This document shows positions 10,249 through 64,000 of a stretch of DNA of 64,000 nt, piece after piece. Under the pieces are notes generated by a model. That model was not told where the DNA came from, searched no databases, and saw only the letters and a program-made list of their open reading frames with translations. The DNA is from Promethearchaeota archaeon. GTDB taxonomy: Archaea; Asgardarchaeota; Heimdallarchaeia; Hodarchaeales; Hodarchaeaceae. Each line of letters opens with the position of its first letter. Position 1 is the first letter of the stretch. The position numbers and the translations under genes were made by a program. The DNA is taken from NCBI GenBank assembly GCA_048938105.1, contig JBHLMN010000004.1:287442-351441 (forward strand), written 5' to 3'.

Positions 10249-10773
10249 TCAATAAAGAGTAAAAATATTAAATCGATTCCAATCCTCTAGGTGACCCTCA
10301 ATAGTTAAAAAATCAGAGCATGATACAACTGCAATGTTATAATTTTCTCTCATCACATCTTTTACTGGAGAAAAATGATGTTCATCATTAGATATAACGT
10401 ATGATACTTCTGTTTGTACTGAAAATTCACAAAAATATTTATCTTTTCTACTCATATCGAGTATTAAATGTTGAGGAACATATTTGCATATTGAAATTTT
10501 TTCAAATCCTTCAAGAGTTGTTATTAAATTCCTTACTAGCATATCTGCAAATCTTGGAGCTATTTTCCTTCTGTTATAAAGCGTATTGACCAGCTCATTC
10601 AGCATACGTGGACAAGAAACAATCTCAAGTTCCTTACATTTCTCAATTATCCGTAAAACAACCTCAAAACCATCCCCACCATGATCCAAGTAATTAAGCA
10701 ATACATTTGTATCCAAAACTACTTTTTTCCGCATTGATTGCTGCCCACACAATAATATCCTGAAATTGTTCAT
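10249..10773 (-). CDS. PIN-domain ribonuclease
   Basis: KVVLDTNVL, conserved E, KDKYF and VISNDEHHF; overlaps the ATPase stop by 4 nt. Confidence 0.88.
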   Translation of the reverse strand: MNNFRILLCGQQSMRKKVVLDTNVLLNYLDHGGDGFEVVLRIIEKCKELEIVSCPRMLNELVNTLYNRRKIAPRFADMLVRNLITTLEGFEKISICKYVPQHLILDMSRKDKYFCEFSVQTEVSYVISNDEHHFSPVKDVMRENYNIAVVSCSDFLTIEGHLEDWNRFNIFTLY

Positions 10774-47971: not shown

Positions 47972-48550
47972 GTGTTTGAAGTGCCCTTTGATAAATTTCT
48001 CAGTAAAATCAGTGGTCAGAAAGAAGTTTTTACCCTCGAAGACTTTCAAGAGAAATTAGATCTCTTTATTTCCAAGATTGAACAAAAACATAAAGCCTCG
48101 AAAATTGCAGAACAAGAGTTCCAACAAAAATATGATGAAAAGCTTTCAAAACTTGATTTCAATGGCAGTAAGCGTGCTGTGGAAAATTCGAGGCATCAAT
48201 TAGCAGAATCTCTGGAATTAAATGTTCAATTAGACTTTTTAAAGAATATTAGGTTATTATCAAAGGGAATACCAGAAAAGAAACTCAAAAAAATAAATTT
48301 TAGGCAAATGGCAGATGATATCTTTAATTCCAAGAAAATCAACTCTCAATCTTATCGAAGAATCATTTTAACTAGATTTAAGAAATTTGTTCCTTCTGCT
48401 GATGACATTCTGTTGACAAGCACTGAATCTGAGGAGGATATCGATCGTATCCTTCAAGAAGTTAAAGAAGGTAAACAAATCATTGGTTCTATTGACAATG
48501 AAGTTGAGAAAATCATCGAAGAGGTTAAGAGAAAAAAGGATGATAAATAA
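47972..48550 (+). CDS. Hypothetical helical/coiled-coil protein
   Basis: 192-aa K/E-rich ORF. Confidence 0.65.
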   Translation: MFEVPFDKFLSKISGQKEVFTLEDFQEKLDLFISKIEQKHKASKIAEQEFQQKYDEKLSKLDFNGSKRAVENSRHQLAESLELNVQLDFLKNIRLLSKGIPEKKLKKINFRQMADDIFNSKKINSQSYRRIILTRFKKFVPSADDILLTSTESEEDIDRILQEVKEGKQIIGSIDNEVEKIIEEVKRKKDDK

Positions 48551-48840
48551 AAGAATGGATTTTTCAAGGATCTTCAAAAAAAACCGTAGATCACATATTT
48601 TTAGGTAATACAAGGGCAACCCATTTTTCATATCTTCGGGCTAGAGATTATGAATTCACTTCTATTGTAACAGGCTCTGTATACTCAATCTTAAATCTTT
48701 ATTTTGGGTATAGTTTCCTTAAATTTAAGCATTCTGAGAGCGAAATCGCTTAATGATCTTTAAGGTGTTGTTAATTACTCCTTTATTACGAGATTTTTAT
48801 AATTGTATTTATGTATAATACTAATAGAAAGCATATCAAG

Positions 48841-49248
48841 ATGAATCCTAACAAGAAAAAGACTGAAGAAGAATGGAAAAAAATCCTGACAAAAGAAAAT
48901 TTCAGGATACTCCGAGAGAAAGGTACAGAACGAGCTTTCACAGGGAAATATTGGGATCATTTTGCTGAAGGGGAATATAAGTGTGCAGGATGTGGAACCC
49001 CCCTTTTTGTGTCTGAAGAGAAATTCTTATCGAGTTGTGGATGGCCTAGTTTCTCTAATCCAGTTAAAGGCACTATTAAAGAAAAAATCGATACTTCCCA
49101 TGGAATGATTCGGACTGAAGTGTTATGTTCGGCTTGCGGAGGGCATTTGGGACATGTGTTCAATGATGGCCCAAAAGAGAAAGGAGGATTACGGTACTGT
49201 ATCAATTCAGCTTCAATAGAATTTGAACATTGTGATTTTCCAAAATAA
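48841..49248 (+). CDS. msrB: Peptide-methionine (R)-S-oxide reductase; last five codons supplied by the transposon end
   Basis: [36 protein letters not shown] and RYCINSAS. Confidence 0.97.
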
Positions 49249-49296
49249 GTGATAAATTGTTCAAAATAATGATTAATTTTCCAGAAATAATTATAA
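49231..49296 (+). repeat. Transposon end: TGTGA followed by three TnsB-type binding sites
   Basis: TTTTCCAAAATAAGTGATAAA (49236), TTGTTCAAAATAATGATTAA (49257) and TTTTCCAGAAATAATTATAA (49277); preceded by AACAT. Confidence 0.8.
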
Positions 49297-49344
49297 TAAA
49301 GTATACATACAATTTCTTTTTCTTTTAGTAAATATCCTTATCAT

Positions 49345-50796
49345 TCAGATTGGAGTCAGAATTAGATTTGGTTTCGAAGTATACAATCCTGTTAAAATCT
49401 CAAAAGCTCCTGACAAACCCAAAGAGATAATATCATCAGAAGGTATGTGTGAATGCATTATTTTGTTTCTAAGTGAATTTAAATTCGTAAATGCCCTTTT
49501 CAATCTCTCCAAATCTGGAAATACATTATAGAAAAATTTATTATGTAATGAAGTAGTTGATACTATCTTACCCAAATCAGAAAAATATGAATTAACAAGA
49601 ATAGCACGTAAACATTCGATGGGGTCATTAAATTTGTTGTTCACGAGTTTTTCTTTTTCTTCTTTACTTTTTGGAATTTTATTCTTTTTAAAAGTTCTCT
49701 GACTAGCACTACCTTTTTTGATGCTTTCTGGCAATATTTTCCAAAGATGATACGATGAATTCCACCCCTTTGGAGTTAATTTTTCCACGATTAGATCCCT
49801 AAGATTGTCTTCTAAGAAAATTATCAACTGAAAGATCTCCGATGATACTATTATATTTGAATCACCATATATGCGGTTTCTAAACGTATTAAAAACAATT
49901 AATGGATAATTTAGAACCTGTTTTGTAAGTGTTCTATATTTTGACCTGTTTTCAGGTGATATATTGGCAGATTCTATTAGTTCATGTGTGAATTTAATAT
50001 TTCCTTTTTCAATTATCTTAATCATCTCAATCATAAATTTAACAACTTCTAATAGAACATTTGGTTGTTTTACTAAACTAAAATGATTGAAGAGCTCCTC
50101 ATCGGATAGATTGTTTGCAAGCCTTTCTATACCTTCCAGTTTTGATCGAATCAAATTTATTCTGTCGTTTAATGGCTTTTCTTCTTTAATTTGGGAATCC
50201 CCAATAATTTTCTTTATTTCACCTTTTATCAAAACTAAATTAGGTGATAATTCAACAGTCTTTTCTTTGAATATTTTCTTGCATAAATCTGATGATCTTA
50301 TTGAATAAATGAATGCATTTTGATTCATCAGAGCTGTATCAACTTCACTTTCATTGTGGATAGAAAAAGTGCCATTTGAAATCCAAGAACTACTCTTTAG
50401 TGTACATTTAATTTTTATTAGTCCTATATTGTATAATTCCCACAGACTGTTCTGAAGCTGACTTTCAGAAAAAGAGCTTTTTCTTAATGTTCGCTCTCTT
50501 GTCCATTTTGCATGTGATTCTAAAACAATAATTAGAATATTGTGTAAAAATGATCTTCTCAATATATATTTTTTTAACCTATTAGGATCTATTAGGTCTG
50601 TAGTTTCCCTTAGTGAGATAATACGGATTATTTTAAATTTTACTATATTTAAGACTCCACAATTAGGACAAATTGTATATCTATTATTGACAAAGATTTC
50701 ACAAATATTTAGGCTATTCTGAATTTCATAAGAAACTGTGAAAGATTTAATAGTAGCATCAAAGTAGTCTGAACAATGTTCACATGTAAAAATTAT
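49345..50796 (-). CDS. Zn-ribbon + wHTH + Swt1-like HEPN protein; probable ATA start (483 aa)
   Basis: The frame is open from 50796, adding CEHC...CPNC upstream of the track's TTG at 50562. FLEDNLRDLI, YFSDLGKIV and LRNKIMHSH. Confidence 0.8.
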   Translation of the reverse strand: MIFTCEHCSDYFDATIKSFTVSYEIQNSLNICEIFVNNRYTICPNCGVLNIVKFKIIRIISLRETTDLIDPNRLKKYILRRSFLHNILIIVLESHAKWTRERTLRKSSFSESQLQNSLWELYNIGLIKIKCTLKSSSWISNGTFSIHNESEVDTALMNQNAFIYSIRSSDLCKKIFKEKTVELSPNLVLIKGEIKKIIGDSQIKEEKPLNDRINLIRSKLEGIERLANNLSDEELFNHFSLVKQPNVLLEVVKFMIEMIKIIEKGNIKFTHELIESANISPENRSKYRTLTKQVLNYPLIVFNTFRNRIYGDSNIIVSSEIFQLIIFLEDNLRDLIVEKLTPKGWNSSYHLWKILPESIKKGSASQRTFKKNKIPKSKEEKEKLVNNKFNDPIECLRAILVNSYFSDLGKIVSTTSLHNKFFYNVFPDLERLKRAFTNLNSLRNKIMHSHIPSDDIISLGLSGAFEILTGLYTSKPNLILTPI

Positions 50797-53576
50797 TCAT
50801 CATCCCTTTTCTCTAAATAATATGGAATCTTTGTTGAAGTTATATCTGCTTTGAAAATCGCTTCAGGTATCTTAACGAAACTTGGATTGCCTTTCTCTCT
50901 TCTTCTAACTAGATAAACTGTTTTAGCTGGTTTAAGATAGATATTCTGAGGTGAAATAATCAAATAGGTAATCCTACTGCCCCCCAATATTTTCATTAGT
51001 TCTTCTGTCCTTATAGGATCTGTTCGTTCATAAATTTCATCCCAAAAACAAAATGTATGCTTGAGAAATGTTTCTTGAACTGAAACAATAAATGCGATTA
51101 ATATAGCTGCTTTTTCTCCACTACTAAAAATGCTTTCTCCCAAAGCTGAATGGTACTCTGATCCTTCAGAAAATCTAACTTTTAAATCAATTCCAAGGTT
51201 GTCAGTAATGGTATCTGCCTTTCCAATTAAATTTATTCTTCCTTCTGCCTTTATTAGGCTCATGAGTTCATTAAATCTTCGGTTAAGTATCTTAATACTG
51301 TTTTGTAAATCCAAACGATATCTCTTAATATAAGACAAAATTTTGTCTTCCCATATACCCACTTCACCTCTACATTGATCTAATTTCCCTTGAAAATCTT
51401 CAATTTCTGATTCCAGTAACATTATTTCTTGAGAGTGATCTCTTGCATCCTTAACTTTTTCTAATTCTTTTTTTAAGAAATTAGTCTCAGCTTCATAAAA
51501 GCTGGGTACTTCCAGTTTATGTAATTCTGAGAGAGTAACAGATGGAAATTCTACTTCCAACCTTTCTTTTGTTCTCTTAACCGTTCTTAGCTCAATTTCA
51601 ATTCCAGATTTTTGATCTTCTTTGTTTTTAATTTCTGTATTGAGACTATTAATCTTTTCCTTAAATTTTTCCCTTTTTCCTTCCTTTTCTCTTAGTCTTA
51701 CACCTAAGTTTTCTAATTCATTTTGAATTCTACTTTGTTCAATATTATGATCCTCAATAATTTCTTCTAGACTACATTTTTCAAATTCTTTGTCACTAAT
51801 CGTTTTTAATAATTGAGATTTACTCTCCCAATTGACTAGTAATCTTTTGAACTTGTTAAATTTCTTAATATGGTTTAATTTAACCATTTTTTTTTCATTT
51901 TCATTATTTAATTGTTCCTCAAGTCCTTTTATCTCAATATCTAATGTTTCAATTTGTTTTTCCCAATCTATAACTGGTTGAATATTCTCTGATAGAGTAT
52001 AACGATATCCGATACCATCATATAGAATTCCATCATTCTCTATCACTTTTTTACTATATTCTTCATTTTTTATAACTTTTATAAGTTCTTCATTAATTAT
52101 TTCAGATAAAATTTCATATTTACAATTATATAATGATTTAAAATAGTCATTATAAGAAAAAGGGACAGATTTATCTATATCAGTTAAGCTAATCAAATAT
52201 TTTTCAAAATTAGTTTCTTGAAACGCTTTCTTAACTGTTTTAAGATTACTAGAAATATTATTTTCAGTCACAAGGGAATACCGTAGATCTTTCAATATTG
52301 CTTCTATTAAAAGTTTCATTTCTTTCGGTGTGTTTTCATTAAAACTTATAATTTTGTAAAAAGGTTCAGTTAAGATATTTAGATTTCCTAATTTATCTTG
52401 AAATTCAATTGATGGTTTTGTTAAAGGTTTTCCACTCTCTAAATTCATTTTTGTTTTTGTAAGTTTTTGTAAACTCATATCTAATTTATCAAACTCTCTA
52501 TCTATTTGTTTTACCTCTTCTTCGTAAGATTTAATCTTGTTTTTTACTTCAGGAATATCCAAACCTTCTGGAATTTTATTCGCCATAGTATGAAATTCAT
52601 TCAATTTATCAAGCTGTTCTAAAATTTTTCCTAAATTAATGGTAAGATCACTAATCTCATCAGTTTTTATATCCAATTGTCCTTTTACTATTCTATATTT
52701 TTCGTCTAATAACTCTATAGCATCCCTATTTTTTTTTAGATTCTTTTCATATCCCTTTTTCCTTTCTTTATGTTCATTTATATCTTCTAATATCGAGTAT
52801 AGATCATCTTCTAATTTACCTTGATTTTTTATTGCTATATTAAGTTCTGACTTTTTCTTATTTAAAATAGATAAATCTATTCGTTCTTCAATACGTTTCT
52901 TTTTTTCAAATCTGTCCTGTTGCCCTTTTAATAAATTAATTTTTGCACTTTTCTCTAATAACTCGTTATTAATCTTTTGAATCTCTTCATTAATGTTTAC
53001 TAATCTTATTAGATCTTTATCCCAATTTTTCCTTAAGTTTTGTAATTTTAAAATTCTCTCAAAGTGTCTTAAGAGGGAAACTGGCGAACTATCAAGAATA
53101 CTTCTTGTTTGACCTGCTGCAATAAATGTTGCTTGATCATCAGCATTAAACTCTATTTTACTCAATATTTCTCTTATTGTGGCTTGACTCGTTGATTTCC
53201 CATTAATTTTATACGATCGTGTAATTCTTTCTTTCTGATTATTGTCAATGAATCTTTTGAATTCTACTCTGAATTTAATAATATTCATACCTGTAGTCAA
53301 ATGATGTTCAATAAGATCTTTCCCGTTTGTTCGATTACTTATATTAACTTCAGCAAACCCAAAATCTGTACCATTTCTTAGTAATAGATTATTAGGTCTA
53401 CGTGATGTTCCACCAAGGGCAACTAAGACCGCATTCCATATAGATGATTTTCCTGATCCATTATCACCGTAGATTACATTAAGATCCTCAGAAAACTCTA
53501 ACGTAAGACCAGGATCACCTATTCCCATTATATTTACAACAGAAACCGATTTTATCATTTCTAACCCCAAAATCAA
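50793..53576 (-). CDS. SMC-family ATPase (JetC/MksB- or Smc5/6-like)
   Basis: GDNGSGKS, coiled coils, hinge-like PFYKIISF...IEAILKDLRYSLV, FSSGEK and FWDEIYERTDP; no Rad50 CxxC hook. Confidence 0.9.
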   Translation of the reverse strand: MILGLEMIKSVSVVNIMGIGDPGLTLEFSEDLNVIYGDNGSGKSSIWNAVLVALGGTSRRPNNLLLRNGTDFGFAEVNISNRTNGKDLIEHHLTTGMNIIKFRVEFKRFIDNNQKERITRSYKINGKSTSQATIREILSKIEFNADDQATFIAAGQTRSILDSSPVSLLRHFERILKLQNLRKNWDKDLIRLVNINEEIQKINNELLEKSAKINLLKGQQDRFEKKKRIEERIDLSILNKKKSELNIAIKNQGKLEDDLYSILEDINEHKERKKGYEKNLKKNRDAIELLDEKYRIVKGQLDIKTDEISDLTINLGKILEQLDKLNEFHTMANKIPEGLDIPEVKNKIKSYEEEVKQIDREFDKLDMSLQKLTKTKMNLESGKPLTKPSIEFQDKLGNLNILTEPFYKIISFNENTPKEMKLLIEAILKDLRYSLVTENNISSNLKTVKKAFQETNFEKYLISLTDIDKSVPFSYNDYFKSLYNCKYEILSEIINEELIKVIKNEEYSKKVIENDGILYDGIGYRYTLSENIQPVIDWEKQIETLDIEIKGLEEQLNNENEKKMVKLNHIKKFNKFKRLLVNWESKSQLLKTISDKEFEKCSLEEIIEDHNIEQSRIQNELENLGVRLREKEGKREKFKEKINSLNTEIKNKEDQKSGIEIELRTVKRTKERLEVEFPSVTLSELHKLEVPSFYEAETNFLKKELEKVKDARDHSQEIMLLESEIEDFQGKLDQCRGEVGIWEDKILSYIKRYRLDLQNSIKILNRRFNELMSLIKAEGRINLIGKADTITDNLGIDLKVRFSEGSEYHSALGESIFSSGEKAAILIAFIVSVQETFLKHTFCFWDEIYERTDPIRTEELMKILGGSRITYLIISPQNIYLKPAKTVYLVRRREKGNPSFVKIPEAIFKADITSTKIPYYLEKRDDE

Positions 53577-54226
53577 GTCTTCTCATTTTCAAATGTCCAC
53601 CCTTCTAAAATTGAAAAGATTTTTGTATTTAAATCATTAATTTGTTCTGAAAGTTCTGATTTCCAATCCAACAGAACAAATCTCCCACTACTGGTTGTTA
53701 TTCTTTTAATATATTTCTTATTTTCAAGTTTTGCTAGAAAACCTCTAATTTCTCTATTATTATATCCATAAGAGCTTTTGATATAATTAATAAGGGATGT
53801 TTCCGAAATATTTGACTCTATTTGGGACATTATTAATATGTATACCAATGTGGCTTTTTCAGGTGTATTTAATTCTTCTTTCATAAAATCTACGAATTTT
53901 TTGTCACCAGTAAGTATGAAGTTATTGTCATTATCTAAGATTTCTATTGAAAAGCTAGAGAATAGAGCTCTTAACCTTGTTAAATGATGATCTACATCCT
54001 TCCCTAAAATTGTAATAAGTCTATTTTTAGAAACTCCTCTTCCATCATTGAACATTAGAGCTATTAAAACTGCGATTAATCTATTTGATAAGTCTTGTGA
54101 CTTTTCGTTTTTGATCAACAAAACATCATCATCTTGTTTTTTAGTCAGATAGCCTAGAATGTTAAAAAAACACTTAGTAGCTTTAATTTCTTTTGTAGAA
54201 AAGTCGTCAGGTAAAATTATGTTCAG
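53573..54226 (-). CDS. Tandem winged-helix KITE-like subunit (JetB/ScpB/Nse1-3-like); probable CTG start
   Basis: Two wH-like halves (LNTPEKATLVYIL...LAKLENKKYIKR), positioned between the kleisin-like and SMC genes. The frame is open to CTG 54226 behind GAGGTGA. Confidence 0.7.
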   Translation of the reverse strand: MNIILPDDFSTKEIKATKCFFNILGYLTKKQDDDVLLIKNEKSQDLSNRLIAVLIALMFNDGRGVSKNRLITILGKDVDHHLTRLRALFSSFSIEILDNDNNFILTGDKKFVDFMKEELNTPEKATLVYILIMSQIESNISETSLINYIKSSYGYNNREIRGFLAKLENKKYIKRITTSSGRFVLLDWKSELSEQINDLNTKIFSILEGWTFENEKT

Positions 54227-54236
54227 TTATATCACC

Positions 54237-55466
54237 TCAAGCTTTATTGATCAAACCATTTCTTATTCTTGAAATTTTCTGGTGCTTTATTTCGTCTATT
54301 TGCTCCTTTAAGGCAACTTTGATTACTCCCCTAATCTCTAGGTCCTTAATGGCTCTTATTATTGCATTAGAGTCTTCCCATTCTTTATTTTCAATAAGAT
54401 TTTGGATTTGAATAGGTTGAAAATCGCTTAAATGATTATAAATTTCTTCTTGTTTTTCTAATGTCCCTTGATTTGGCCGATATTCCTTCGGAATTTCATT
54501 AACATTATTAATTAATATTGGAACACTGAATTGATGTACTTTAGTTGATACAGACTCTCTTTGCGAGCTTTTTTCATCTTTAATACACCATTTTAAAACA
54601 TTAGTTGATGTAATAATTGGTAAAGATTTGCTACTTAAGAATGGTAAAAATTCAATCAATCTTGCCATTTCTTCAACAGTTGCAGATTTAAGATAGTTCT
54701 GTACATCATCTGGATATATTCCAACTTCAGAAAGCTTAATTTTTCTTTTAATAAAACTTGACTCACGTTTCCAGGCAATTGAGAAAGCTTTAGTCAATTC
54801 TTGACGTAATTTGCTAAAGGGGGCAAAATCCTTTATATTGGTTGTTGGCTTGAGGTGTATATCGACTTGCTCTATTATTTCTCTTCGAAGTTGTTCAAGT
54901 GACTCTCCATATGTCTCATTCGAATCTGATCGATAATTCATATAGATACTTTCTATGATTGATCTCAGTAATTGTTGTAGACTTTCAAAATCACCTATTG
55001 CATCACCCTCTCCAGTCCAGGATAATATCATATCAAATCTTTTTTTCGCCATCCAAAAGTCTGAATTCGGTAATGTAGCTAGCAATTGAGATAAAATAAA
55101 GGCAACCCAATTCCCTTTTGGTGTAAGTATATATGTATTGAAATACTTCCCTTCTATTAAAAGGTTGAGAGTACGCAATTTTGCTAAATCAGACGATTTA
55201 ATTTCGACTAGACCTGGAAAATGATGTTCTACTAATGATTGAATTTCTCTACGGGTCAATGATTGTTCAGGCTTATAATTCCAAGCCATTGATAATAGGA
55301 TTAAGAAACGTCGTATTCCTGAATCACCTCTTTGTGATACTATGAAAAGAATTCCAGAAATTTCTTTTAGAGAATCTAGTGAAAAGAAGATCTTTTTAGA
55401 TCTTCCTGGAAAATAGATTTTCTCTCCGTGAAAATAATCATTAGTCTTCATTTCATCATTTCTCAT
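54237..55466 (-). CDS. Kleisin-like subunit (JetA/MksF-like)
   Basis: N-terminal wH (YILTPKG), helical bundle, low-structure linker and C-terminal wH (IRAIKDLEIRGVIKV); first gene of the SMC operon. Confidence 0.65.
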   Translation of the reverse strand: MRNDEMKTNDYFHGEKIYFPGRSKKIFFSLDSLKEISGILFIVSQRGDSGIRRFLILLSMAWNYKPEQSLTRREIQSLVEHHFPGLVEIKSSDLAKLRTLNLLIEGKYFNTYILTPKGNWVAFILSQLLATLPNSDFWMAKKRFDMILSWTGEGDAIGDFESLQQLLRSIIESIYMNYRSDSNETYGESLEQLRREIIEQVDIHLKPTTNIKDFAPFSKLRQELTKAFSIAWKRESSFIKRKIKLSEVGIYPDDVQNYLKSATVEEMARLIEFLPFLSSKSLPIITSTNVLKWCIKDEKSSQRESVSTKVHQFSVPILINNVNEIPKEYRPNQGTLEKQEEIYNHLSDFQPIQIQNLIENKEWEDSNAIIRAIKDLEIRGVIKVALKEQIDEIKHQKISRIRNGLINKA

Positions 55467-55587
55467 TTTATGTCCCCTACCTGTGACATGAAAAAAAACA
55501 GTAAGATTAGTTATATCTCTTTAATGAATAGTATAAAAATTCTTTTTTCTAAAGAATTTACCACAAAAATTTCTTGGAAAAAATAAA

Positions 55588-56739
55588 CTATTTCTTTCTT
55601 ACTCTGTTCACCTCTCCAAATACATTTAATAATAAATCATTCCACGAATAGATACCAAAATTTCTCCAATGTCCTAGATGACATGCACCTTGAATTGACC
55701 TCATTCCTAAATCTCTTTTTTTTGGTTTTCGCTTATAAATTTCCGCGAATTTCAGTAATTTTTCCTTAGCATGATCAAATCCCTTCTTTCCAATGTAAAT
55801 ATTATTTTTTCGATTAACATCACCAAATATATCAAAAAGTAGATCATTCCATGAATTAATCCCAAAATCTTGCCAATATCCTTTAAAACACGCTTTAGCG
55901 ATTGTTTCCATCCCTTTATCTCTGTAATTAGGTTTTCTTCTGTATTTCTTGCAGAAATCTAAAAGTTCACCTTTTACTCGCTTTAGATTTTCTAATCCTT
56001 TGAAAAGATTAATCTCCTGATTTACTTCTCCAAAAATATCCATTAATAAATCGTTCCATGAAGATATTCCAAACTCCCTCCAATTACCCTGAAGACATGC
56101 TTTTTGAATTGATTTCATCCCTTCATCCCTAATTGTTGGTTTATAGCCTTTTTCTTTGAAAAAAGCAATTATTCTCTTATTTGCGAGCTTTAAACCCTTC
56201 AAACCAACATAAGGATTTCTTTCTTTATTTAATTCTCCAAATACACTCAAAAGTAAATCATTCCATGAGGTAATACCATAATTAGTCCAGTAGTTATGAT
56301 AACATGATTCTATAAGAGATTGCAATTCTTTATCATTGGAAGTAGGCAATCGTTTATGCTTATGATAGAACACCCTCAATTTGCATTGGGCAATCTCTTT
56401 TCCTAATTTTCCTTTCCTCCCATTTGTTTTGATCAAGGCTTTGAGAAAATCTTCAAATTCAGCTAAAAGATATGTTAATTTTCTTAAAAAGTTATATTCT
56501 ACGTTATATTTCTTACAAATCTCATTCGAATATCCAGAAATAAAGAATTCCATTATAATTTGCTTTAACCGCCTAGTCTCTTTTAAAAACCATTTTGAAT
56601 AAAATTCTTCATTATCAATTTTCCATATTCGGAGGTCATCATAAATCTTGACTGAAAAAGTAAAATCTTGATAATCTAGGATTTTTGTTTTCAAATCACT
56701 TGGTTTCACAATTTTGAAGTTTTGCCCATCTACACTCAT
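55588..56739 (-). CDS. Repeat protein B: four 69-aa W..GI.SWNDLL..FG repeats; candidate transposon target selector
   Basis: 207-bp DNA period (55634, 55841, 56048, 56255). Likely start is ATG 56739 behind GGGGA (the track starts at 56856). Confidence 0.8.
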   Translation of the reverse strand: MSVDGQNFKIVKPSDLKTKILDYQDFTFSVKIYDDLRIWKIDNEEFYSKWFLKETRRLKQIIMEFFISGYSNEICKKYNVEYNFLRKLTYLLAEFEDFLKALIKTNGRKGKLGKEIAQCKLRVFYHKHKRLPTSNDKELQSLIESCYHNYWTNYGITSWNDLLLSVFGELNKERNPYVGLKGLKLANKRIIAFFKEKGYKPTIRDEGMKSIQKACLQGNWREFGISSWNDLLMDIFGEVNQEINLFKGLENLKRVKGELLDFCKKYRRKPNYRDKGMETIAKACFKGYWQDFGINSWNDLLFDIFGDVNRKNNIYIGKKGFDHAKEKLLKFAEIYKRKPKKRDLGMRSIQGACHLGHWRNFGIYSWNDLLLNVFGEVNRVRKK

Positions 56740-56819
56740 ATTTAATTCCCCTTGAATTGATATGTCGAAAAGGTTATCGTTTTTGTTAATTCTGACTTTT
56801 ATATCAATAGTATAACGTT

Positions 56820-57941
56820 TTATTCGTTCCAAACCTCCTTTAACAAATCTATCCAAGAATTAATTCCATTTTTAGTCCAATAACCTCTTTGAATTGCTTT
56901 TACAATACCACCTACACCCTTTGACCTTCTTGTAGGTTTTATTTCATTTGTCTTATAATACATTCTTAGGTAGGCTTTTGCATATTCTAATCCTTCCTCT
57001 CCAGTCCATATGTGACTCTTTTTATTTACTTCTCCAAAAATATGAAAAAGGAAATCATTCCAGGAGTGAATTTTTTGATCTTCCCAATATTTCCTCTTGA
57101 TTGCTGTACAAATTCCCATCATTTTACAGTCATTAGCTTTAGGTTTTCTCTCATGAGTCGAATAAAATTCTAACGCTTCCATTTTTGCTTTTTCAAACCC
57201 AGCTTGCCCTGTATATACATTATTTTCTTTATTAACTTCCCCAAAGATTGTTTTCAGTAAATCATTCCATGATTTTATATTAAAATCCTTCCAAATACCT
57301 CGTGAGATAATATTTAGGTATTGTGACATCCCATTATCCCTTGTAGTTGGAATTCGATCAAATTCGCGATGAAAGTTACGAAGTTTTTCTTCAACTACTT
57401 CCAATCCTTCTTTACCATTATAAGTACCATATTCTTGATTCACATCACCAAAAGCAGCCCTGAGTAGTTCATTCCAACTTGTAATTACATATTTTTCCCA
57501 ATAAAGCTTTCTTCTTAGAGCTTTTTGAAGTCCATTAAACCCCTTATCTCTCTGAACAGGATTACGTCCTTTTTCTTTTTTAAAAAGTCTTAAACGAGCT
57601 TTAGCGAGTTCTAAACCTAATCTTCCCTTCCAACCATTTACCCTGAATAACGCAGATGTGATATTGGTGAATTCTAGAACGTTGAAAGCTAATTCTCTAA
57701 TAAGTTGAAAATCTTGATCGTATTTATCACAAACTGATTGGGAGTATCCTTCTTGAATAAATTCTATTACAATAATCCTTAGTTTTTGAACTTCCTCTAG
57801 GAACCATTTGGAATAACATTCTTCATTATTAATCTTCCACAAACCAGAGAAATTTAATAGGTTGATATTCTCTAGATTAGTTCCAACTGAATGAATAGCA
57901 TCTGCAGTTTTACATGGCTTTGGAATTTTAAAAATGTCCAA
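56820..57941 (-). CDS. Repeat protein A: four ~69-aa repeats, paralog of 55588..56739
   Basis: Shared N-domain WKI.NEE.YSKWFL.E and the same repeat consensus; directly downstream of tnsC. Confidence 0.8.
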   Translation of the reverse strand: MDIFKIPKPCKTADAIHSVGTNLENINLLNFSGLWKINNEECYSKWFLEEVQKLRIIVIEFIQEGYSQSVCDKYDQDFQLIRELAFNVLEFTNITSALFRVNGWKGRLGLELAKARLRLFKKEKGRNPVQRDKGFNGLQKALRRKLYWEKYVITSWNELLRAAFGDVNQEYGTYNGKEGLEVVEEKLRNFHREFDRIPTTRDNGMSQYLNIISRGIWKDFNIKSWNDLLKTIFGEVNKENNVYTGQAGFEKAKMEALEFYSTHERKPKANDCKMMGICTAIKRKYWEDQKIHSWNDFLFHIFGEVNKKSHIWTGEEGLEYAKAYLRMYYKTNEIKPTRRSKGVGGIVKAIQRGYWTKNGINSWIDLLKEVWNE

Positions 57942-57967
57942 ATCATAATCATTTCCCCTTAAATCTT

Positions 57968-59179
57968 CTATATCCGATCACCCTCTCTATTAACTAGTTT
58001 AATGTTTTTATGTTTCATTTTATAATGATTAATTAAATTTCTGTATGTTTTGTAAGGAGATCGAGACCTTTTGCACCCTTTAATCTTACATAAACGGTCT
58101 TCAAACCCAAGGACAATTTTCAGCTCATTACCATCCTCATGCTCTACTCTAAGAGTTTCATAATTAACTCCCTCAAGGATAATTAAGCCATAATCATCTT
58201 TATCTGGATAGAGTCGTCCTGCGTTAAGGGCTCTTTTTGCTGCATATTTGATCAGTTCAACAGTCAATCCCGCTTTCCCATAACTTCTTTTATAAAGAAA
58301 CATTGCTATTTCTGGATTTAAAACTAAATTTTCACTAGATTTATCCTCAATTACCAAATTCCATTTATCTGAAATTCCCATTGATGTGAAATCTTCATGA
58401 ATAGCCCATAGAAAATTACCATATTCAATCTGGGGTAAACTCCTTAGTTTAATAGAATGGGCTCTTCCTTGTATCCAGTCAGCTGCATCTAATAATGGAA
58501 GGCCATCTTGTGTTCCACAGAGCAAAAAATATGTTCTTAATGAGTCTTTCCAGTATGATTTTGTTGTTAAGTCTTTCAAAGCCTCAAAGATATTCGGAAT
58601 GTCAGGATTTCTAGATTTTAATAGGCGTTGACATTCATCTATAATTAATAAACGTGTTTTATACGATTCTAGTACTGATATGAGTTTCTGTCGGAGACGG
58701 ACTTCACAAACATTAGTTTTTTCCCAATTCTTAACCTGACGCGGATCAATAGGCCGTCCTAATTGATCTAGTAGAAATAACAATAATTGTTTCGCAGTGT
58801 TAATATCATTTGTTAAATTAACAATGATAATTGGATGAGTTTCTTCAGGATTGTCCCAGTATGAACGATATTTCTCTTTAAAAAGGGAAGCTGAATATCT
58901 TAATAAATAGGACTTTCCTGAATTATAATCTCCATACAAGAATAATATCCGACCCCGATCATTCATATCTTGATCAGCATCACGAAATCTAGGATCAAGT
59001 TCAAGTCTAATAATTTCTTTTGCTTGGTTATACATATAGAATGGTTTTCGTGTATTAATTCGGTCAAGAATTTCCTTTAATTCTTTAGGAAGTGAATCCA
59101 ACAGTTCAAGATGGTCTTCTGACACTTCAAAGTTATCATAACTATCAATTGAATTAGAAGTCATGTTTTCTATACTCAC
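57968..59179 (-). CDS. tnsC: TnsC/TniB AAA+ ATPase with C-terminal C2H2 zinc finger
   Basis: GDYNSGKS, LLIIDECQ, LCGT and IQGR; C-terminal CKIKGC...HYKMKH; overlaps the tnsAB stop by 4 nt. Confidence 0.88.
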   Translation of the reverse strand: MSIENMTSNSIDSYDNFEVSEDHLELLDSLPKELKEILDRINTRKPFYMYNQAKEIIRLELDPRFRDADQDMNDRGRILFLYGDYNSGKSYLLRYSASLFKEKYRSYWDNPEETHPIIIVNLTNDINTAKQLLLFLLDQLGRPIDPRQVKNWEKTNVCEVRLRQKLISVLESYKTRLLIIDECQRLLKSRNPDIPNIFEALKDLTTKSYWKDSLRTYFLLCGTQDGLPLLDAADWIQGRAHSIKLRSLPQIEYGNFLWAIHEDFTSMGISDKWNLVIEDKSSENLVLNPEIAMFLYKRSYGKAGLTVELIKYAAKRALNAGRLYPDKDDYGLIILEGVNYETLRVEHEDGNELKIVLGFEDRLCKIKGCKRSRSPYKTYRNLINHYKMKHKNIKLVNREGDRI

Positions 59180-61824
59180 CTCTTTTTCCTTTTTGCTAGA
59201 TCTCCAGCTTTCTTTTTTGTTATACCAGAAAATGGATTAGCTATTTTTGAAGGAATTTTAATTGTTTTTAGACGTTCTGGCTTTTCGATCTGAAAGACTT
59301 CAGGGTTAATGTGTGTATCGTCATTATTTTTTGTAAATCTATCATTTTCTTTATTGGAATAATTAGGTTTACTTTTTTCTCTACACTTTCGTCTTGCGTG
59401 TTTTTGTCGTGCACTCTTTGTTTTTTCTGCAGCTTTTTGATCTATTTCTTGCTGTAAACTTAGAAGTCTTAATTTTCTCTCCATATCTTCCTCTTTTCTT
59501 CCTTCGAGATTTTTATCAGCCTTTATAGCATTCCAATCCCATAGAGAAAGAGATTTTTCTCTAAAATAAATATTTACAAAACGATCAGTACAATTAAGCT
59601 CAATATATCCACGAATGTGATCATAAAAGTAAATTATTCTTATGTCTCTTGGATCAAACCTAATTCGAAACTTCTGACTTCTTTTCGTATTTATTGGATC
59701 TTTACTACCAATATATTGTTCAATTTCTTCGTTTGCATATTTAAGACCAAAGATTTCAATACCACTTTTCTGAACAGTTCGTAATTCAGAAGGTAGAACG
59801 TCAAACTTGAAAGTAGTATTGTCAACATGAAGTAAATTTCTATTGATCCCTCTTTCCTCACTAATCAATGAAAAACTTTGCTTCCATTTGGCCAAAGGAT
59901 TAGTTCTAATCTGACTGTGGTATTCTTCATGATAAAGTGCAATTTCTGTAATTATTCTGGCTTCTAATTCATCAATGGTAAAACTAGCTCTTTTTTCCGA
60001 TGGATAGTTCTCTCTTTGAGTAGGATTAGAATATGTGGTTCCTGCAATAGAATGTAATCTATTATTAAGTGTGCCAAGGAATCGTTCGACATAAGCTCCA
60101 TGTTGAGGCTTTTTTACTGCACGATAATGTAAATGAACTCCATATTTTAATCCAAAGAGCCTTATATCTTCACTCGTAAAATCTGAACCATTATCCATGT
60201 GCAGTGTATAAGGTAAACCAAATACTTGACACCATTCACTCGATTCCAAAATCCCTAGTTTTTCTGAATCTAAATCAGGAAATTGTTCTCTAACTTTTAG
60301 AAGAGATTCTTTCTTGTTTTGAATACAATTAATCAAGGTCATTGCAATAGAAAGCCGACTGGGAGAGTCATAGGTGATATAATATCCCAGAACACATCTA
60401 GAATGACTATCGAATGCTATGGTGATATAAGGACGTTCAGTAACTAATCTATATTCCTCATCCACAACTAAAACATCAATTGGGGTGTGATCAATCTGTA
60501 CGGATTGCAAAACATAAGTACCATGTGGAAATTCCGATGTATTGATATTAAACAAGTTTTCGATGGCTTTTTCCCCTCTCCTTTGTTTAATTACTTCTTT
60601 TTGAGAAATGCTCTTTAATCTACGCCTAAAAGATGAATAGCTTAAGCAATGTTCTAATTGACCTTGTTCTAATGCATAGGCTTGCATAAGTTCATGGGCC
60701 CGTTTGATACTTTTCCGTTCCATTTGTAAGTAATAACTTAGGCCTATCTCGCATAATTCCTCCGTAAGGCCCTTTTGTACCTTTTTTCTTCCTCTTTGAT
60801 TGTACTTGGGAATCAGGCTTTTTATATCCCCCCCACTTTTGTTATAAGCTAATATCCAACGATACACGGTTAACCAAAAGATCTCTTGGCCATCTTTTTT
60901 GAATTTCATTTGTTTTAATCGTTTAATTGGAGTTCCTAATAAGGGGTAAATAATTTCTAATCGAGAATTAGCCTCCTCCCACAGTTCAATGGATTTTTTC
61001 GGATTATTAGAGATTGCATATACATCATTGTAAAATGTTACACTAGAATCTACACTTTGTTGTTTTTCCCAATCGAAAGTTCGAAACCAAGTGTCTAATG
61101 GTTTATAATTGGATCTAAATGTATTTACTTCATAAAGAAATGATTTTTCTGTTAGTAATTCATCTATATTTACGTTTAATTCGAAATGATATATCATAGC
61201 ATAAAGAGTTGACCAAATATCATCAATAGTAACACTTTCGGGAAGAAGTTTCAGATTAATGGATTCTACTAGATTTCTTATTCTAATTCTTGGTTTTTTT
61301 GATAAAATGGCTTTTATGTGTTTTTTGATTTCTATATAAACCATTGGGTCTATCGTAGCTTGCATTAATTTTCGTAAATTGTAAATTCTGAAAGATTGGT
61401 TTACGATCTGATCTGTAACTACAATAAACTCAATATCTACATTATTTATGTCTGTTATTTGATTTGAGAGATCATTTCTGTTTTCATCAATCCATTTCTG
61501 GGTTTCAGAGAATTTCTTAATGAACTCCATCTTCTTCTCGAGTAAATCTTTAAGATACTTAACTTCGATGATTAGAATCTTATATCGTTCATCAATTTTC
61601 AAGAAAACTACAAAATCAGGTGTCCATACACTTTTTGACCATTTAAGTTCAATTCCATGTTCACAATAGGATTTTACAAATGGGTCATGTTCAAGAAGAA
61701 TAGCTACATCCCATTCTAAGTTTGATTGACACCATACCTGTCTTCTAAGCTTTTTTGAGTAAAAAAAAATTGTTGTTGATATTTGGTTAGCTTTAGGTGT
61801 ATGTAAAGGACTGGTTTTTAACAA
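59176..61824 (-). CDS. tnsAB: TnsA-TnsB fusion transposase
   Basis: TnsA: FYSKK...QSNLE...TPDF...IEVK. TnsB: VQIDHT, RPYIT.AFD..SR, HMDNGSDF, GAYVERFLGTLN and Mu-C-like RFDPRDI. Confidence 0.93.
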   Translation of the reverse strand: MLKTSPLHTPKANQISTTIFFYSKKLRRQVWCQSNLEWDVAILLEHDPFVKSYCEHGIELKWSKSVWTPDFVVFLKIDERYKILIIEVKYLKDLLEKKMEFIKKFSETQKWIDENRNDLSNQITDINNVDIEFIVVTDQIVNQSFRIYNLRKLMQATIDPMVYIEIKKHIKAILSKKPRIRIRNLVESINLKLLPESVTIDDIWSTLYAMIYHFELNVNIDELLTEKSFLYEVNTFRSNYKPLDTWFRTFDWEKQQSVDSSVTFYNDVYAISNNPKKSIELWEEANSRLEIIYPLLGTPIKRLKQMKFKKDGQEIFWLTVYRWILAYNKSGGDIKSLIPKYNQRGRKKVQKGLTEELCEIGLSYYLQMERKSIKRAHELMQAYALEQGQLEHCLSYSSFRRRLKSISQKEVIKQRRGEKAIENLFNINTSEFPHGTYVLQSVQIDHTPIDVLVVDEEYRLVTERPYITIAFDSHSRCVLGYYITYDSPSRLSIAMTLINCIQNKKESLLKVREQFPDLDSEKLGILESSEWCQVFGLPYTLHMDNGSDFTSEDIRLFGLKYGVHLHYRAVKKPQHGAYVERFLGTLNNRLHSIAGTTYSNPTQRENYPSEKRASFTIDELEARIITEIALYHEEYHSQIRTNPLAKWKQSFSLISEERGINRNLLHVDNTTFKFDVLPSELRTVQKSGIEIFGLKYANEEIEQYIGSKDPINTKRSQKFRIRFDPRDIRIIYFYDHIRGYIELNCTDRFVNIYFREKSLSLWDWNAIKADKNLEGRKEEDMERKLRLLSLQQEIDQKAAEKTKSARQKHARRKCREKSKPNYSNKENDRFTKNNDDTHINPEVFQIEKPERLKTIKIPSKIANPFSGITKKKAGDLAKRKKR

Positions 61825-61853
61825 TTGAACTCATCTGAATGGTTTTTAAATGA

Positions 61854-61872
61854 TTATCATTATTTTGGAAAA
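61854..61872 (-). promoter_or_regulatory. Single TnsB-type site upstream of tnsAB (probable autoregulatory operator)
   Basis: Reverse complement is TTTTCCAAAATAATGATAA, matching the consensus of the end repeats; no terminal ACA next to it. Confidence 0.7.
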
Positions 61873-62322
61873 AAAGAAGTTTATAAGCTCCCTAGAACTT
61901 AGTTTTCATATGTCAGCTCCTTTAAAAGCAAGCATTGGTAGTATTTCCTGCCGTAGCAACCGAAAGAAACGTCTAATAACACATCAAATCAATACATACT
62001 GTTCATTGACAGATTTAACTCTGTCAAATCATAAGTAGAAGAAGGGAACTAATGAGGTTGTAGGTGATGTATGAGTGATGAACGAGGAAGCGGCTTATAA
62101 TGGCACACTGGAGCTAATGTTTAAGCAATATCCATGATTAAAATATAATCCTAGAAAATATAACCAGAAATCAATAAATAAGCAAATACTGGTGATTATG
62201 CCAAATAATAAGGTAGAGTCTGATCCTGAACTAAGACTGGTAGGAGTCAATAACCGTTATATTGATGTTAATTTATTAGCGTTTATTGATGTTCAGTAAG
62301 TATTACTTGATTAGGGGATAAA

Positions 62323-64000
62323 ATGCCGTACTATTACATAACAGAAACAAATTTTGATCCATCTGTAGTAACCAAGTACGAAGAATTGCTTAAATGGTTT
62401 GAACAATCATTAAATGAAGAATATCATATCTTTATTGAGTTCAAAGTGCCAGCTGGGCGGGAAATTGACTTCTTAATACTAGCAAGAGATGGAATATGGC
62501 TAATTGAGCATAAACAGCATGATTTCATTGAGATCTTAAATGAAGGAAACTGGAAATATAAGGACCATCGTGGTCAAGAGAGAACACTTATTAAAAAAGT
62601 CAAAACTGGATATGAGAATCCATATAGACAAGCAACTAATACTGGAAACAACTTTGCTTCTTGGTTAAGACGGAATAACCATCTAGGTAACAATCTAAGA
62701 AAAAGAAAAAAGATTTACCCATGCGTGACATTCCCCGATTACCCCACGGAAATAGCAAAGCAAGAAACAGACTTGTGGTGTTATATTTCTAAAGGCGTGG
62801 AAGGAATACAAAAGAACATGGAAAATAGACGATGGGAGGAAGGTGATTGGATAACAGAGGAAGCAATAGAAAACATAGCTACAGCATTAAACTTAGAAAG
62901 AATCTCCTATACAGACCTGATCCAACATAAAGCCAATTTAGAAAAGATTTTTATGGAAACCAGTAAAGCACAGGTGCAAGAAGTCAAGAAAATTTTTGCT
63001 GAAACAAATCAAGTATTTTCTAATAATGATTGGATCTTTTGTGCTAATTTAAAAGAAGAAAAATCCTCCCCTAGATTCAAAGAAGTACCATTAACCGATT
63101 TTAATAAAGAGTCACTCCCATTCATTCTCACAGGTGATTTTGGGAGTGGAAAGACAGTTGTGTGCTACCAGATTATGGAATATCTTTTAAAAAAACATTT
63201 GGGCTTTTATTTTCCTGTGAGAGAGATAATTGTAACAAAAGAGAACGAATCACATCAAAAAATTCTGTTTAAAGGTAAAGATTATACTTATCCCATTAAT
63301 GTAAATCAGGATATTTTTGAAAACGTAGAAAATGAAGTTAATGAAATAATTGTGTTTCTAATCAAAACCTTAATAGCTACTTATAATGAGAAGGGACTAA
63401 TTGACCAAATCACCAATGGTATCAAGAACTACTTGAATGATCAAAGATTCTTCATAATATTAGATGGATGGGATGAAATTTCAAGTCATTCCAGGAGTCT
63501 ACTGAAAAAAATCCTTGATTATCTGTTAATAAAGGATGTAGCTGTTATTGTTTCTTGCAGAACACCGTTAGACGTACACTTACCAAGAACCAAGGTAGAT
63601 AGTAAAAAAATCCCTATATATAACCCTATTCCATTACCAGAACAACAGATGATACAATACATCTCGGAACGGATTAAAAATTGGCTAATAGATATTTCTG
63701 CACCGCAAATTCTCTCTCTGTTAAAGAAAACTTATGATAATAATATTACACCTTTTCATCTATATGCAATGACAATTGTACCTATAACTGAACCTCCAAA
63801 GAATACAGCGCAATTGCTTCGATGGATGATTATTGCTCAAGTTGGTTGGGAATTATTGAAGGAAAGAAAGGATGAGTTTAAAGATATTAAAACGATTCAA
63901 GACCTTATAAATCTCTTAAAAAAAGAAATGATAATCATAGGTACAAAAGAAATCTCACTATACAATGCTATCTTTGATTACCAAGAAATTGATAACGATA
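62323..64000 (+). CDS. NERD nuclease + NACHT-like STAND NTPase, runs off window end
   Basis: Hand translation from ATG 62323 (GGGGA upstream): EIDFLILARDGIWLIEHK, ENPYRQA, LTGDFGSGKT and FIILDGWDEI. Confidence 0.85.
   Translation, partial: MPYYYITETNFDPSVVTKYEELLKWFEQSLNEEYHIFIEFKVPAGREIDFLILARDGIWLIEHKQHDFIEILNEGNWKYKDHRGQERTLIKKVKTGYENPYRQATNTGNNFASWLRRNNHLGNNLRKRKKIYPCVTFPDYPTEIAKQETDLWCYISKGVEGIQKNMENRRWEEGDWITEEAIENIATALNLERISYTDLIQHKANLEKIFMETSKAQVQEVKKIFAETNQVFSNNDWIFCANLKEEKSSPRFKEVPLTDFNKESLPFILTGDFGSGKTVVCYQIMEYLLKKHLGFYFPVREIIVTKENESHQKILFKGKDYTYPINVNQDIFENVENEVNEIIVFLIKTLIATYNEKGLIDQITNGIKNYLNDQRFFIILDGWDEISSHSRSLLKKILDYLLIKDVAVIVSCRTPLDVHLPRTKVDSKKIPIYNPIPLPEQQMIQYISERIKNWLIDISAPQILSLLKKTYDNNITPFHLYAMTIVPITEPPKNTAQLLRWMIIAQVGWELLKERKDEFKDIKTIQDLINLLKKEMIIIGTKEISLYNAIFDYQEIDND

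Follow-up and report, generated by a model that had tools for sequence, protein, structure and literature searches.

In the transposon Tn7, TnsD recognises the 3′ coding end of glmS (attTn7), and insertion takes place approximately 23 bp past the stop codon of this gene. The value of the Tn7 family resides in such a precise choice of site: each new pair of site and selector shows how the choice evolves, and each natural pair is a candidate tool for programmable insertion. A recent study, whose survey was seeded with the TniQ profile PF06527, described Tn7-family elements in archaea, including Asgard MAGs, some of them with fused tnsAB (Thesier et al. 2025, bioRxiv 10.1101/2025.07.27.667033). 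These elements were found to insert into or beside housekeeping genes, with sites at nrdD, tRNA genes, an N4/N6 methylase gene and a radical-SAM gene, and a Heimdallarchaeota member was reconstituted in E. coli, where its transposition showed TniQ-dependent targeting. An alternative selector, TnsF, which acts at comM, was reported for the Tn6022/Tn6230-type elements (Faure et al. 2023, PMC10293859). The msrB gene is not named as a natural Tn7 site in either the 2025 archaeal preprint or the 2023 selector survey, in agreement with a first-pass annotation of the sequence, in which msrB was not recognised as a described Tn7 attachment gene. The sole pairing of Tn7 and msrB in the literature searched was the engineered CAST tagging of E. 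coli msrB.

The locus described here was found in a stretch of 64,000 nucleotides (the window) from an Asgard archaeon, whose GTDB genus also includes Ca. Hodarchaeum mangrovi, and it combines a new attachment site with a new Asgard variant of Tn7-like transposon that lacks TniQ. The element was observed inserted at msrB, and it is highly probable that the 3′ end of this gene is the attachment site of the family, used as Tn7 uses glmS. As with Tn7 at attTn7, the right end is turned toward the 3′ end of a conserved housekeeping gene whose product is spared, and the two also have in common a 5-bp duplication, TGT...ACA termini, repeat units that are contiguous at the right end and spaced at the left, and a TnsC-type ATPase. 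Unlike Tn7, the target is msrB and not glmS, insertion occurs in the last codons or no more than 5 nt past the stop with a 12-bp spread of offsets, TnsB is fused to a TnsA-like region, no TnsD/TniQ domain is detectable, and the host is an archaeon. The likeness to Tn7 proposed in the first-pass annotation therefore held for the 5-bp duplication, but not for a fixed offset, which ranges from 38 to 50 nt, nor for TnsD/TniQ as the reader of the site, this role being likely played by a repeat protein without a TniQ domain.

The element resembles those of Thesier et al. in belonging to the Tn7 family, in its Asgard host and in its housekeeping-gene site, but it differs from them in the msrB target and in having no match to PF06527. 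Since its proteins do not match this profile, the msrB family would escape a survey seeded with it. Like the Tn6022/Tn6230-type elements, it has a Tn7 core that was redirected to a conserved gene by a selector different from the classical TnsD, although the candidate selector here is a helical tandem-repeat protein, in contrast to the tyrosine-recombinase-like TnsF. The family is devoid of the TniQ domain on which published surveys rely, and its msrB site is defined to the base by filled, empty and fossil alleles, as well as by a transposase-less passenger with the same ends, which makes the msrB tail a concrete DNA substrate for testing the selector of the family. The "safe harbour" strategy, in which a conserved region coding for an active site is exploited, appears to have arisen again in archaea near the eukaryotic stem.

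The msrB junction and the structure of the element

The msrB ORF may start at 48811 or 48841 and stops at 49248, and the SelR profile was matched over positions 1-115 of 116. It is the sole copy, since no second msrB was found in the host genome. The right end of the transposon meets msrB between 49230 and 49231, reading AACAT/TGTGA, so that the C-terminus of the protein consists of 13 residues of msrB (not shown) followed by CDFPK, these last five codons and the stop being encoded by the transposon end. This junction, together with the three ~20-bp repeats and the element-supplied codons, had been read in the same way in the first-pass annotation, and the insertion point, which had been placed some 30-40 bp past the codons of the RYC motif, lies 39 nt downstream of the Arg codon that begins at 49192. 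It corresponds to a position two codons ahead of the native msrB stop, and the catalytic SelR domain is kept whole. The three right-end units occupy 49231-49249, 49250-49269 and 49270-49290 and are presumed to be TnsB binding sites. Moreover, the right end holds stops in all three frames within seven codons, which results in varied short msrB tails (CDFPK, VSFQNK and MRFQNK) that always spare the SelR domain. The 60-bp end block was recovered in the host genome itself and in relatives by nhmmer (E 5e-14 to 9e-16) and by BLAST (E 4e-14 to 1e-20), and it cannot be attributed to chance because of this recurrence and its absence from uninserted relatives. The features of the locus are presented in Table 1.

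Table 1. Coordinates of the msrB gene, the transposon and its passenger; positions refer to the window unless contig C47 is indicated
Feature	Position	Strand	Evidence or remark
msrB (methionine-R-sulfoxide reductase, SelR domain)	48841..49248	+	PF01641, E 3.4e-51
RYCINS codons	49192..49209	+	nucleotide conservation over 25 msrB genes
AACAT, left copy of the 5-bp target-site duplication	49226..49230	+	sequence reading
Transposon right end, begins TGTGA, three contiguous ~20 bp units	49231..49290	+	sequence, nhmmer, BLAST
Window part of the 24,578-bp element	49231..64000	.	continues on contig C47:691-10498
Cargo: four-gene operon with SMC/Rad50-like ATPase (405, 927, 182, 409 aa)	49345..55466	-	
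422-aa repeat protein, paralogue of the 373-aa protein, candidate target selector	55588..56856	-	
373-aa repeat protein, candidate target selector	56820..57941	-	occupies TniQ/TnsD position of Tn7-like operons
TnsC/TniB-type AAA+ ATPase	57968..59179	-	PF05621, E 1e-12, above cut-off
TnsA-TnsB fusion transposase, 882 aa	59176..61824	-	TnsA_N, Mu HTH, rve, Mu-transposase C-terminal domains
Single end-type unit directly upstream of tnsAB start	61853..61875	-	conserved in L038
5′ part of 1697-aa cargo gene (NERD + NACHT)	62323..64000	+	crosses contig join into C47
Inner element (L043), 2,218 bp	C47:10515-12732		PEMT/ICMT-family methyltransferase and NHL-repeat genes, without transposase

The whole Tn7-type element measures 24,578 bp (24.6 kb), of which the window carries the right-hand 14.8 kb. 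The end of the window is also the end of its contig (C27), and the element resumes on contig C47, whose bases 626-690 are 100% identical to the last 65 bases of C27. When the window was joined to C47:691 onward, an uninterrupted in-frame ORF of 1697 aa (NERD-NACHT) was obtained, and a 1543-aa ORF of genome G036 gave one colinear alignment to its residues 210-797, crossing the join at residue 559. The left end was located on C47, with spaced inverted units at 10335-10445 and a terminus, ending in CCCACA, that stops at 10498 and mirrors TGTGATTTTCC. It is followed by AACAT (10499-10503), identical to the five bases ahead of the right end, and next comes CGT TAA, which restores an msrB tail ending in EFEHR and the stop. 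This is the empty-site tail of the closest relative, G003, whose uninserted msrB ends in IEFEHR and the stop and has no TGTGA block, as revealed by the comparison of empty msrB loci. In this way, the inverted end predicted downstream of 64000 was indeed found, with CCCACA and then AACAT at C47:10488-10503, albeit not on the same contig, and the element is seen to have TGT...ACA termini, repeat units packed on the right and spaced on the left, and AACAT duplicated on both sides. No terminus was present in the space between tnsAB and the next gene in the window (61825-62322), which holds one internal unit only. The sequence TTTGAACAT, shared by the msrB tail and C47:10430, was ruled out as a target duplication, because at C47:10430 it belongs to an inverted repeat unit located 60 bp inward from the true terminus, and a 16-bp weight matrix of the repeat unit held too little information for this AT-rich DNA.

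Some features of the assembly around the element deserve a separate description. C47 begins with 625 bases that have no relation to the end of the window and yet lead into the same 65-bp overlap, an alternative path whose minus strand encodes the start of a beta-helix-like protein and which may represent a strain variant or an assembly chimaera; the host MAG comprises 5.85 Mb with 7.25% contamination. The synteny near msrB (window 47972-48550 and C47:13380-16460) was unlike that of G003, and a 619-aa gene located upstream of msrB in G003 is found inverted on C47, 2 kb past the far end of the element, which suggests an inversion with a breakpoint beside msrB.

Within the element, all the genes from 49345 to 61824 lie on the minus strand, and the tnsC gene overlaps the stop of tnsAB. 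The TnsB part of the fusion matched PF09299 (E 7e-12) and PF09039, both above cut-off, with the rve match below cut-off, and the TnsA-like N-terminal region gave a match to PF08722 over residues 48-114 that was likewise below cut-off, with E 1.1e-4 (23.2 bits against a cut-off of 26.5), the same family being present in the precomputed list for two relatives of the fusion, P0021 and P0022. The end-type unit that precedes tnsAB is also found upstream of a 75%-identical tnsAB in the metagenome locus L038, and its position beside the tnsAB start ties the transposase to the end observed at msrB. Further defence-like cargo lies in the C47 part, where the NACHT protein is accompanied by an exonuclease, a DEAD-box helicase and a nucleotidyltransferase.

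A smaller passenger was found in tandem with this element. A second right end starts at C47:10515, eleven bases past the duplication of the first left end (E 5e-14), and a second left end stops at C47:12732, followed by AACAT (C47:12733-12737) and CTC TGA. The DNA after the second left end aligns with the downstream flank of msrB in G003, and the flavodoxin gene beyond it is syntenic with that genome. The pair of first right end and first left end, as well as the outer pair of first right end and second left end, have AACAT on both sides, whereas the flanks of the inner pair differ (AAAAT versus AACAT) and thus do not form a duplication. This mismatch led to the rejection of two simple successive insertions in this genome, and, because the inner pair lacks its own duplication, the tandem array needs an extra step, either composite movement or recombination. 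The simplest account is a composite route, in which the small element would first have entered an earlier host, 5 nt past the msrB stop, followed by insertion of the large element at AACAT, and the resulting 26.8-kb composite, with a trapped 16-bp msrB tail, would have moved into the msrB of this genome. Homologous recombination with incoming DNA would give the same tandem picture as composite movement. Besides, a left-end-like terminus (…GAAAACCCAGA) was observed ~120 bp inside the second right end (L043:10515-10646), and it may be the remnant of a miniature element.

Recurrence at msrB and alternative explanations

Related elements also sit at msrB. Among 25 msrB genes of relatives, right ends adjoin the gene in G006, G008, G010 and G011, and a decayed one does so in G009, which amounts to five other genomes of the genus, with differing offsets. 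Counting both events of the present genome, the distances from the Arg codon to the junctions are 38, 39, 41, 41, 44, 48 and 50 nt, which places the latter between two codons ahead of the msrB stop and 5 nt beyond it, and the right end faces msrB at all seven junctions, as determined by genome comparison. The SelR profile was matched to position 115 of 116, and the tails differ by 1-7 residues only. A BLAST search with the 66-bp end against 82 genomes of the class recovered seven strong copies, six of which were at msrB or an msrB tail and the remaining one at a contig edge, and no copies of the end away from msrB were found in the host genome. Insertion has thus recurred at one conserved gene with the protein domain intact, and it was orientation-specific, at a defined site and with the right end proximal, as observed for Tn7. 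The first-pass proposal of msrB as a safe-harbour site is supported by the opposite end, the empty sites and the ends at msrB in the five other genomes.

No TnsAB or TnsC was found in the assemblies of the five occupied relatives. The contigs of G006, G008 and G011 break off no more than ~0.7 kb past the end, and live elements may be unassembled or unbinned in these genomes. The end in G010 precedes genes that belong to ordinary metabolic and transport families, which makes this copy a fossil. In the single-contig assembly of G009, the end stops after ~28 nt and is decayed, and no TnsAB was found, which suggests that this copy is a fossil as well. No left ends were detected in the 40 kb downstream of msrB in G009 and G010 when up to one mismatch to the terminus was allowed. 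A scan of the genome collection with the end pattern returned only relatives already known, and that of the metagenome collection returned two chance matches, without msrB and without an end.

The fossil appearance of the G010 and G009 copies, together with the lack of tnsAB and tnsC in the five occupied relatives and the presence of the same DUF4256 gene after the end in G010 and in one G006 contig, would fit a single ancient insertion inherited vertically, in which the block after msrB would be a conserved relic and not the mark of a preferred site. However, the junction offsets differ among relatives (38-50 nt), which points to independent events, and closer relatives such as G003 are empty. 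Moreover, the ends are 83-93% identical between genomes, whereas the adjoining 333 nt of msrB, a coding gene under selection, are 66-79% identical; the ends being more alike than msrB argues for recent spread and against an inherited relic. The end in the present genome also has an intact partner and a duplication, and vertical inheritance of one event is therefore considered very improbable.

At least seven junctions from six genomes, all inside a 12-bp interval of one gene, are difficult to reconcile with untargeted insertion, for instance through a general preference for AT-rich 3′ gene ends, in which msrB would not be a dedicated site. Sister elements do occur elsewhere, in several cases right at the end of unrelated genes, and the offset at msrB is not fixed but spread over 12 bp; even so, no strong copy was shown at another gene among the 82 genomes or in the host genome, and this explanation is given hardly any weight. 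Site-specific or homologous recombination, instead of Tn7-type transposition, was also considered, since the inner 2.2-kb element is flanked by imperfect 16-bp direct repeats of the msrB tail (AACATCGTTAAAAAAT and AACATCTCTGAAAAAT), which could be taken as att-like cores, and lacks a 5-bp duplication of its own. Nevertheless, no integrase family was found among the ORFs of the element, the two elements end in the manner of Tn7, with TGT...ACA termini and arrays of repeated units, and the 5-bp duplication is exact at the outer pair and at the pair formed by the first right and first left ends. Recombination may account for the tandem array, but not for the primary insertion, and this reading is most unlikely.

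Candidate target selectors

Two repeat proteins of the operon, of 373 and 422 aa and with 39% identity between them, are proposed as selectors because they are its only candidates and stand where TniQ/TnsD stands. They consist of helical repeats of ~65 aa in variable number, and 213 representative relatives of the 373-aa protein were recovered. Neither of the two proteins nor three orthologues matched TniQ (PF06527), even at E 10. The structural model of the 373-aa protein was all-helical, with a mean pLDDT of 84.8, and a Foldseek search of this model against the PDB returned nothing at E 0.001 or better.

Over the 25 msrB genes, the best conserved nucleotides were those coding for GLRYCINS and the upstream stretch coding for a 12-residue segment (not shown), and this conserved block finishes 21-33 bp ahead of the insertion points. 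The footprint of TnsD in Tn7 lies at a comparable distance from the insertion point. Judging from nucleotide conservation, the RYCINS codons, as the most conserved DNA block beside the insertion point, are the candidate recognition site. Which bases are read, and whether the selector is the 373-aa protein, the 422-aa protein or both, is proposed here from position and conservation, with the chances of this assignment being right evenly balanced. In such a mechanism, the selector would bind the invariant DNA for the active-site motif GLRYCINS, perhaps also that of the 12-residue segment, and the bound selector would recruit TnsC, after which the TnsA-TnsB fusion would insert the element about 20-30 bp past the recognised block. 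More speculatively, the repeat proteins might themselves recognise the 3′ coding DNA of msrB, each repeat reading a short stretch, so that the family would retarget itself by changing repeats, and the two paralogues might explain the two insertion clusters ~10 bp apart (38-44 and 48-50 nt) or might serve one chromosomal and one alternative pathway. This extension is rather doubtful; if true, no DNA target would have been defined for helical-repeat selectors before the msrB site.

The family beyond the genus

Some 25 proteins of 833-906 aa related to the TnsA-TnsB fusion are encoded in Asgard MAGs and metagenomes, among them those of Odinarchaeota and Heimdallarchaeota LC_2. A minimal member of 5.3 kb is common to three genomes (L040-L042), where it comprises tnsAB, tnsC and one repeat protein, with the contiguous-unit end ~230 bp upstream of tnsAB and the spaced-unit end on the other side; in L042, the 5-bp duplication CACAT is present on both sides. 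Compared with these minimal members, the element of the window has an inverted tns operon, which is oriented away from the right end at a distance of 10 kb, with cargo on both sides. No msrB was found in ten other loci of the TnsAB family (L037-L042 and L076-L080), which indicates that the msrB site is a feature of the subfamily seen in the present genus.

Within the same genus, a diverged sister right end, 79% identical to that of the window, was found in G006 (L081, G006:C95, locus ~1546, contig 9045). It starts directly past the stop of an unrelated gene (481 aa, no Pfam family), which suggests a second attachment site in the genus. In two further loci (L037:9555-9660 and L078:3100-3170), the right end begins within or right past the last codons of a gene, and the element supplies the stop; the genes hit are one ORF with a GDGS (LAGLIDADG-like) motif and one ORF of 1043 aa. 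Finally, a 44%-identical relative of the transposase is encoded in Heimdallarchaeota LC_2 (L079, MDVR01000081.1, 3036-4436), followed by TnsC and a true TniQ (PF06527), and the presence of TniQ in this locus implies that the putative repeat-protein selectors replaced TniQ within the lineage.
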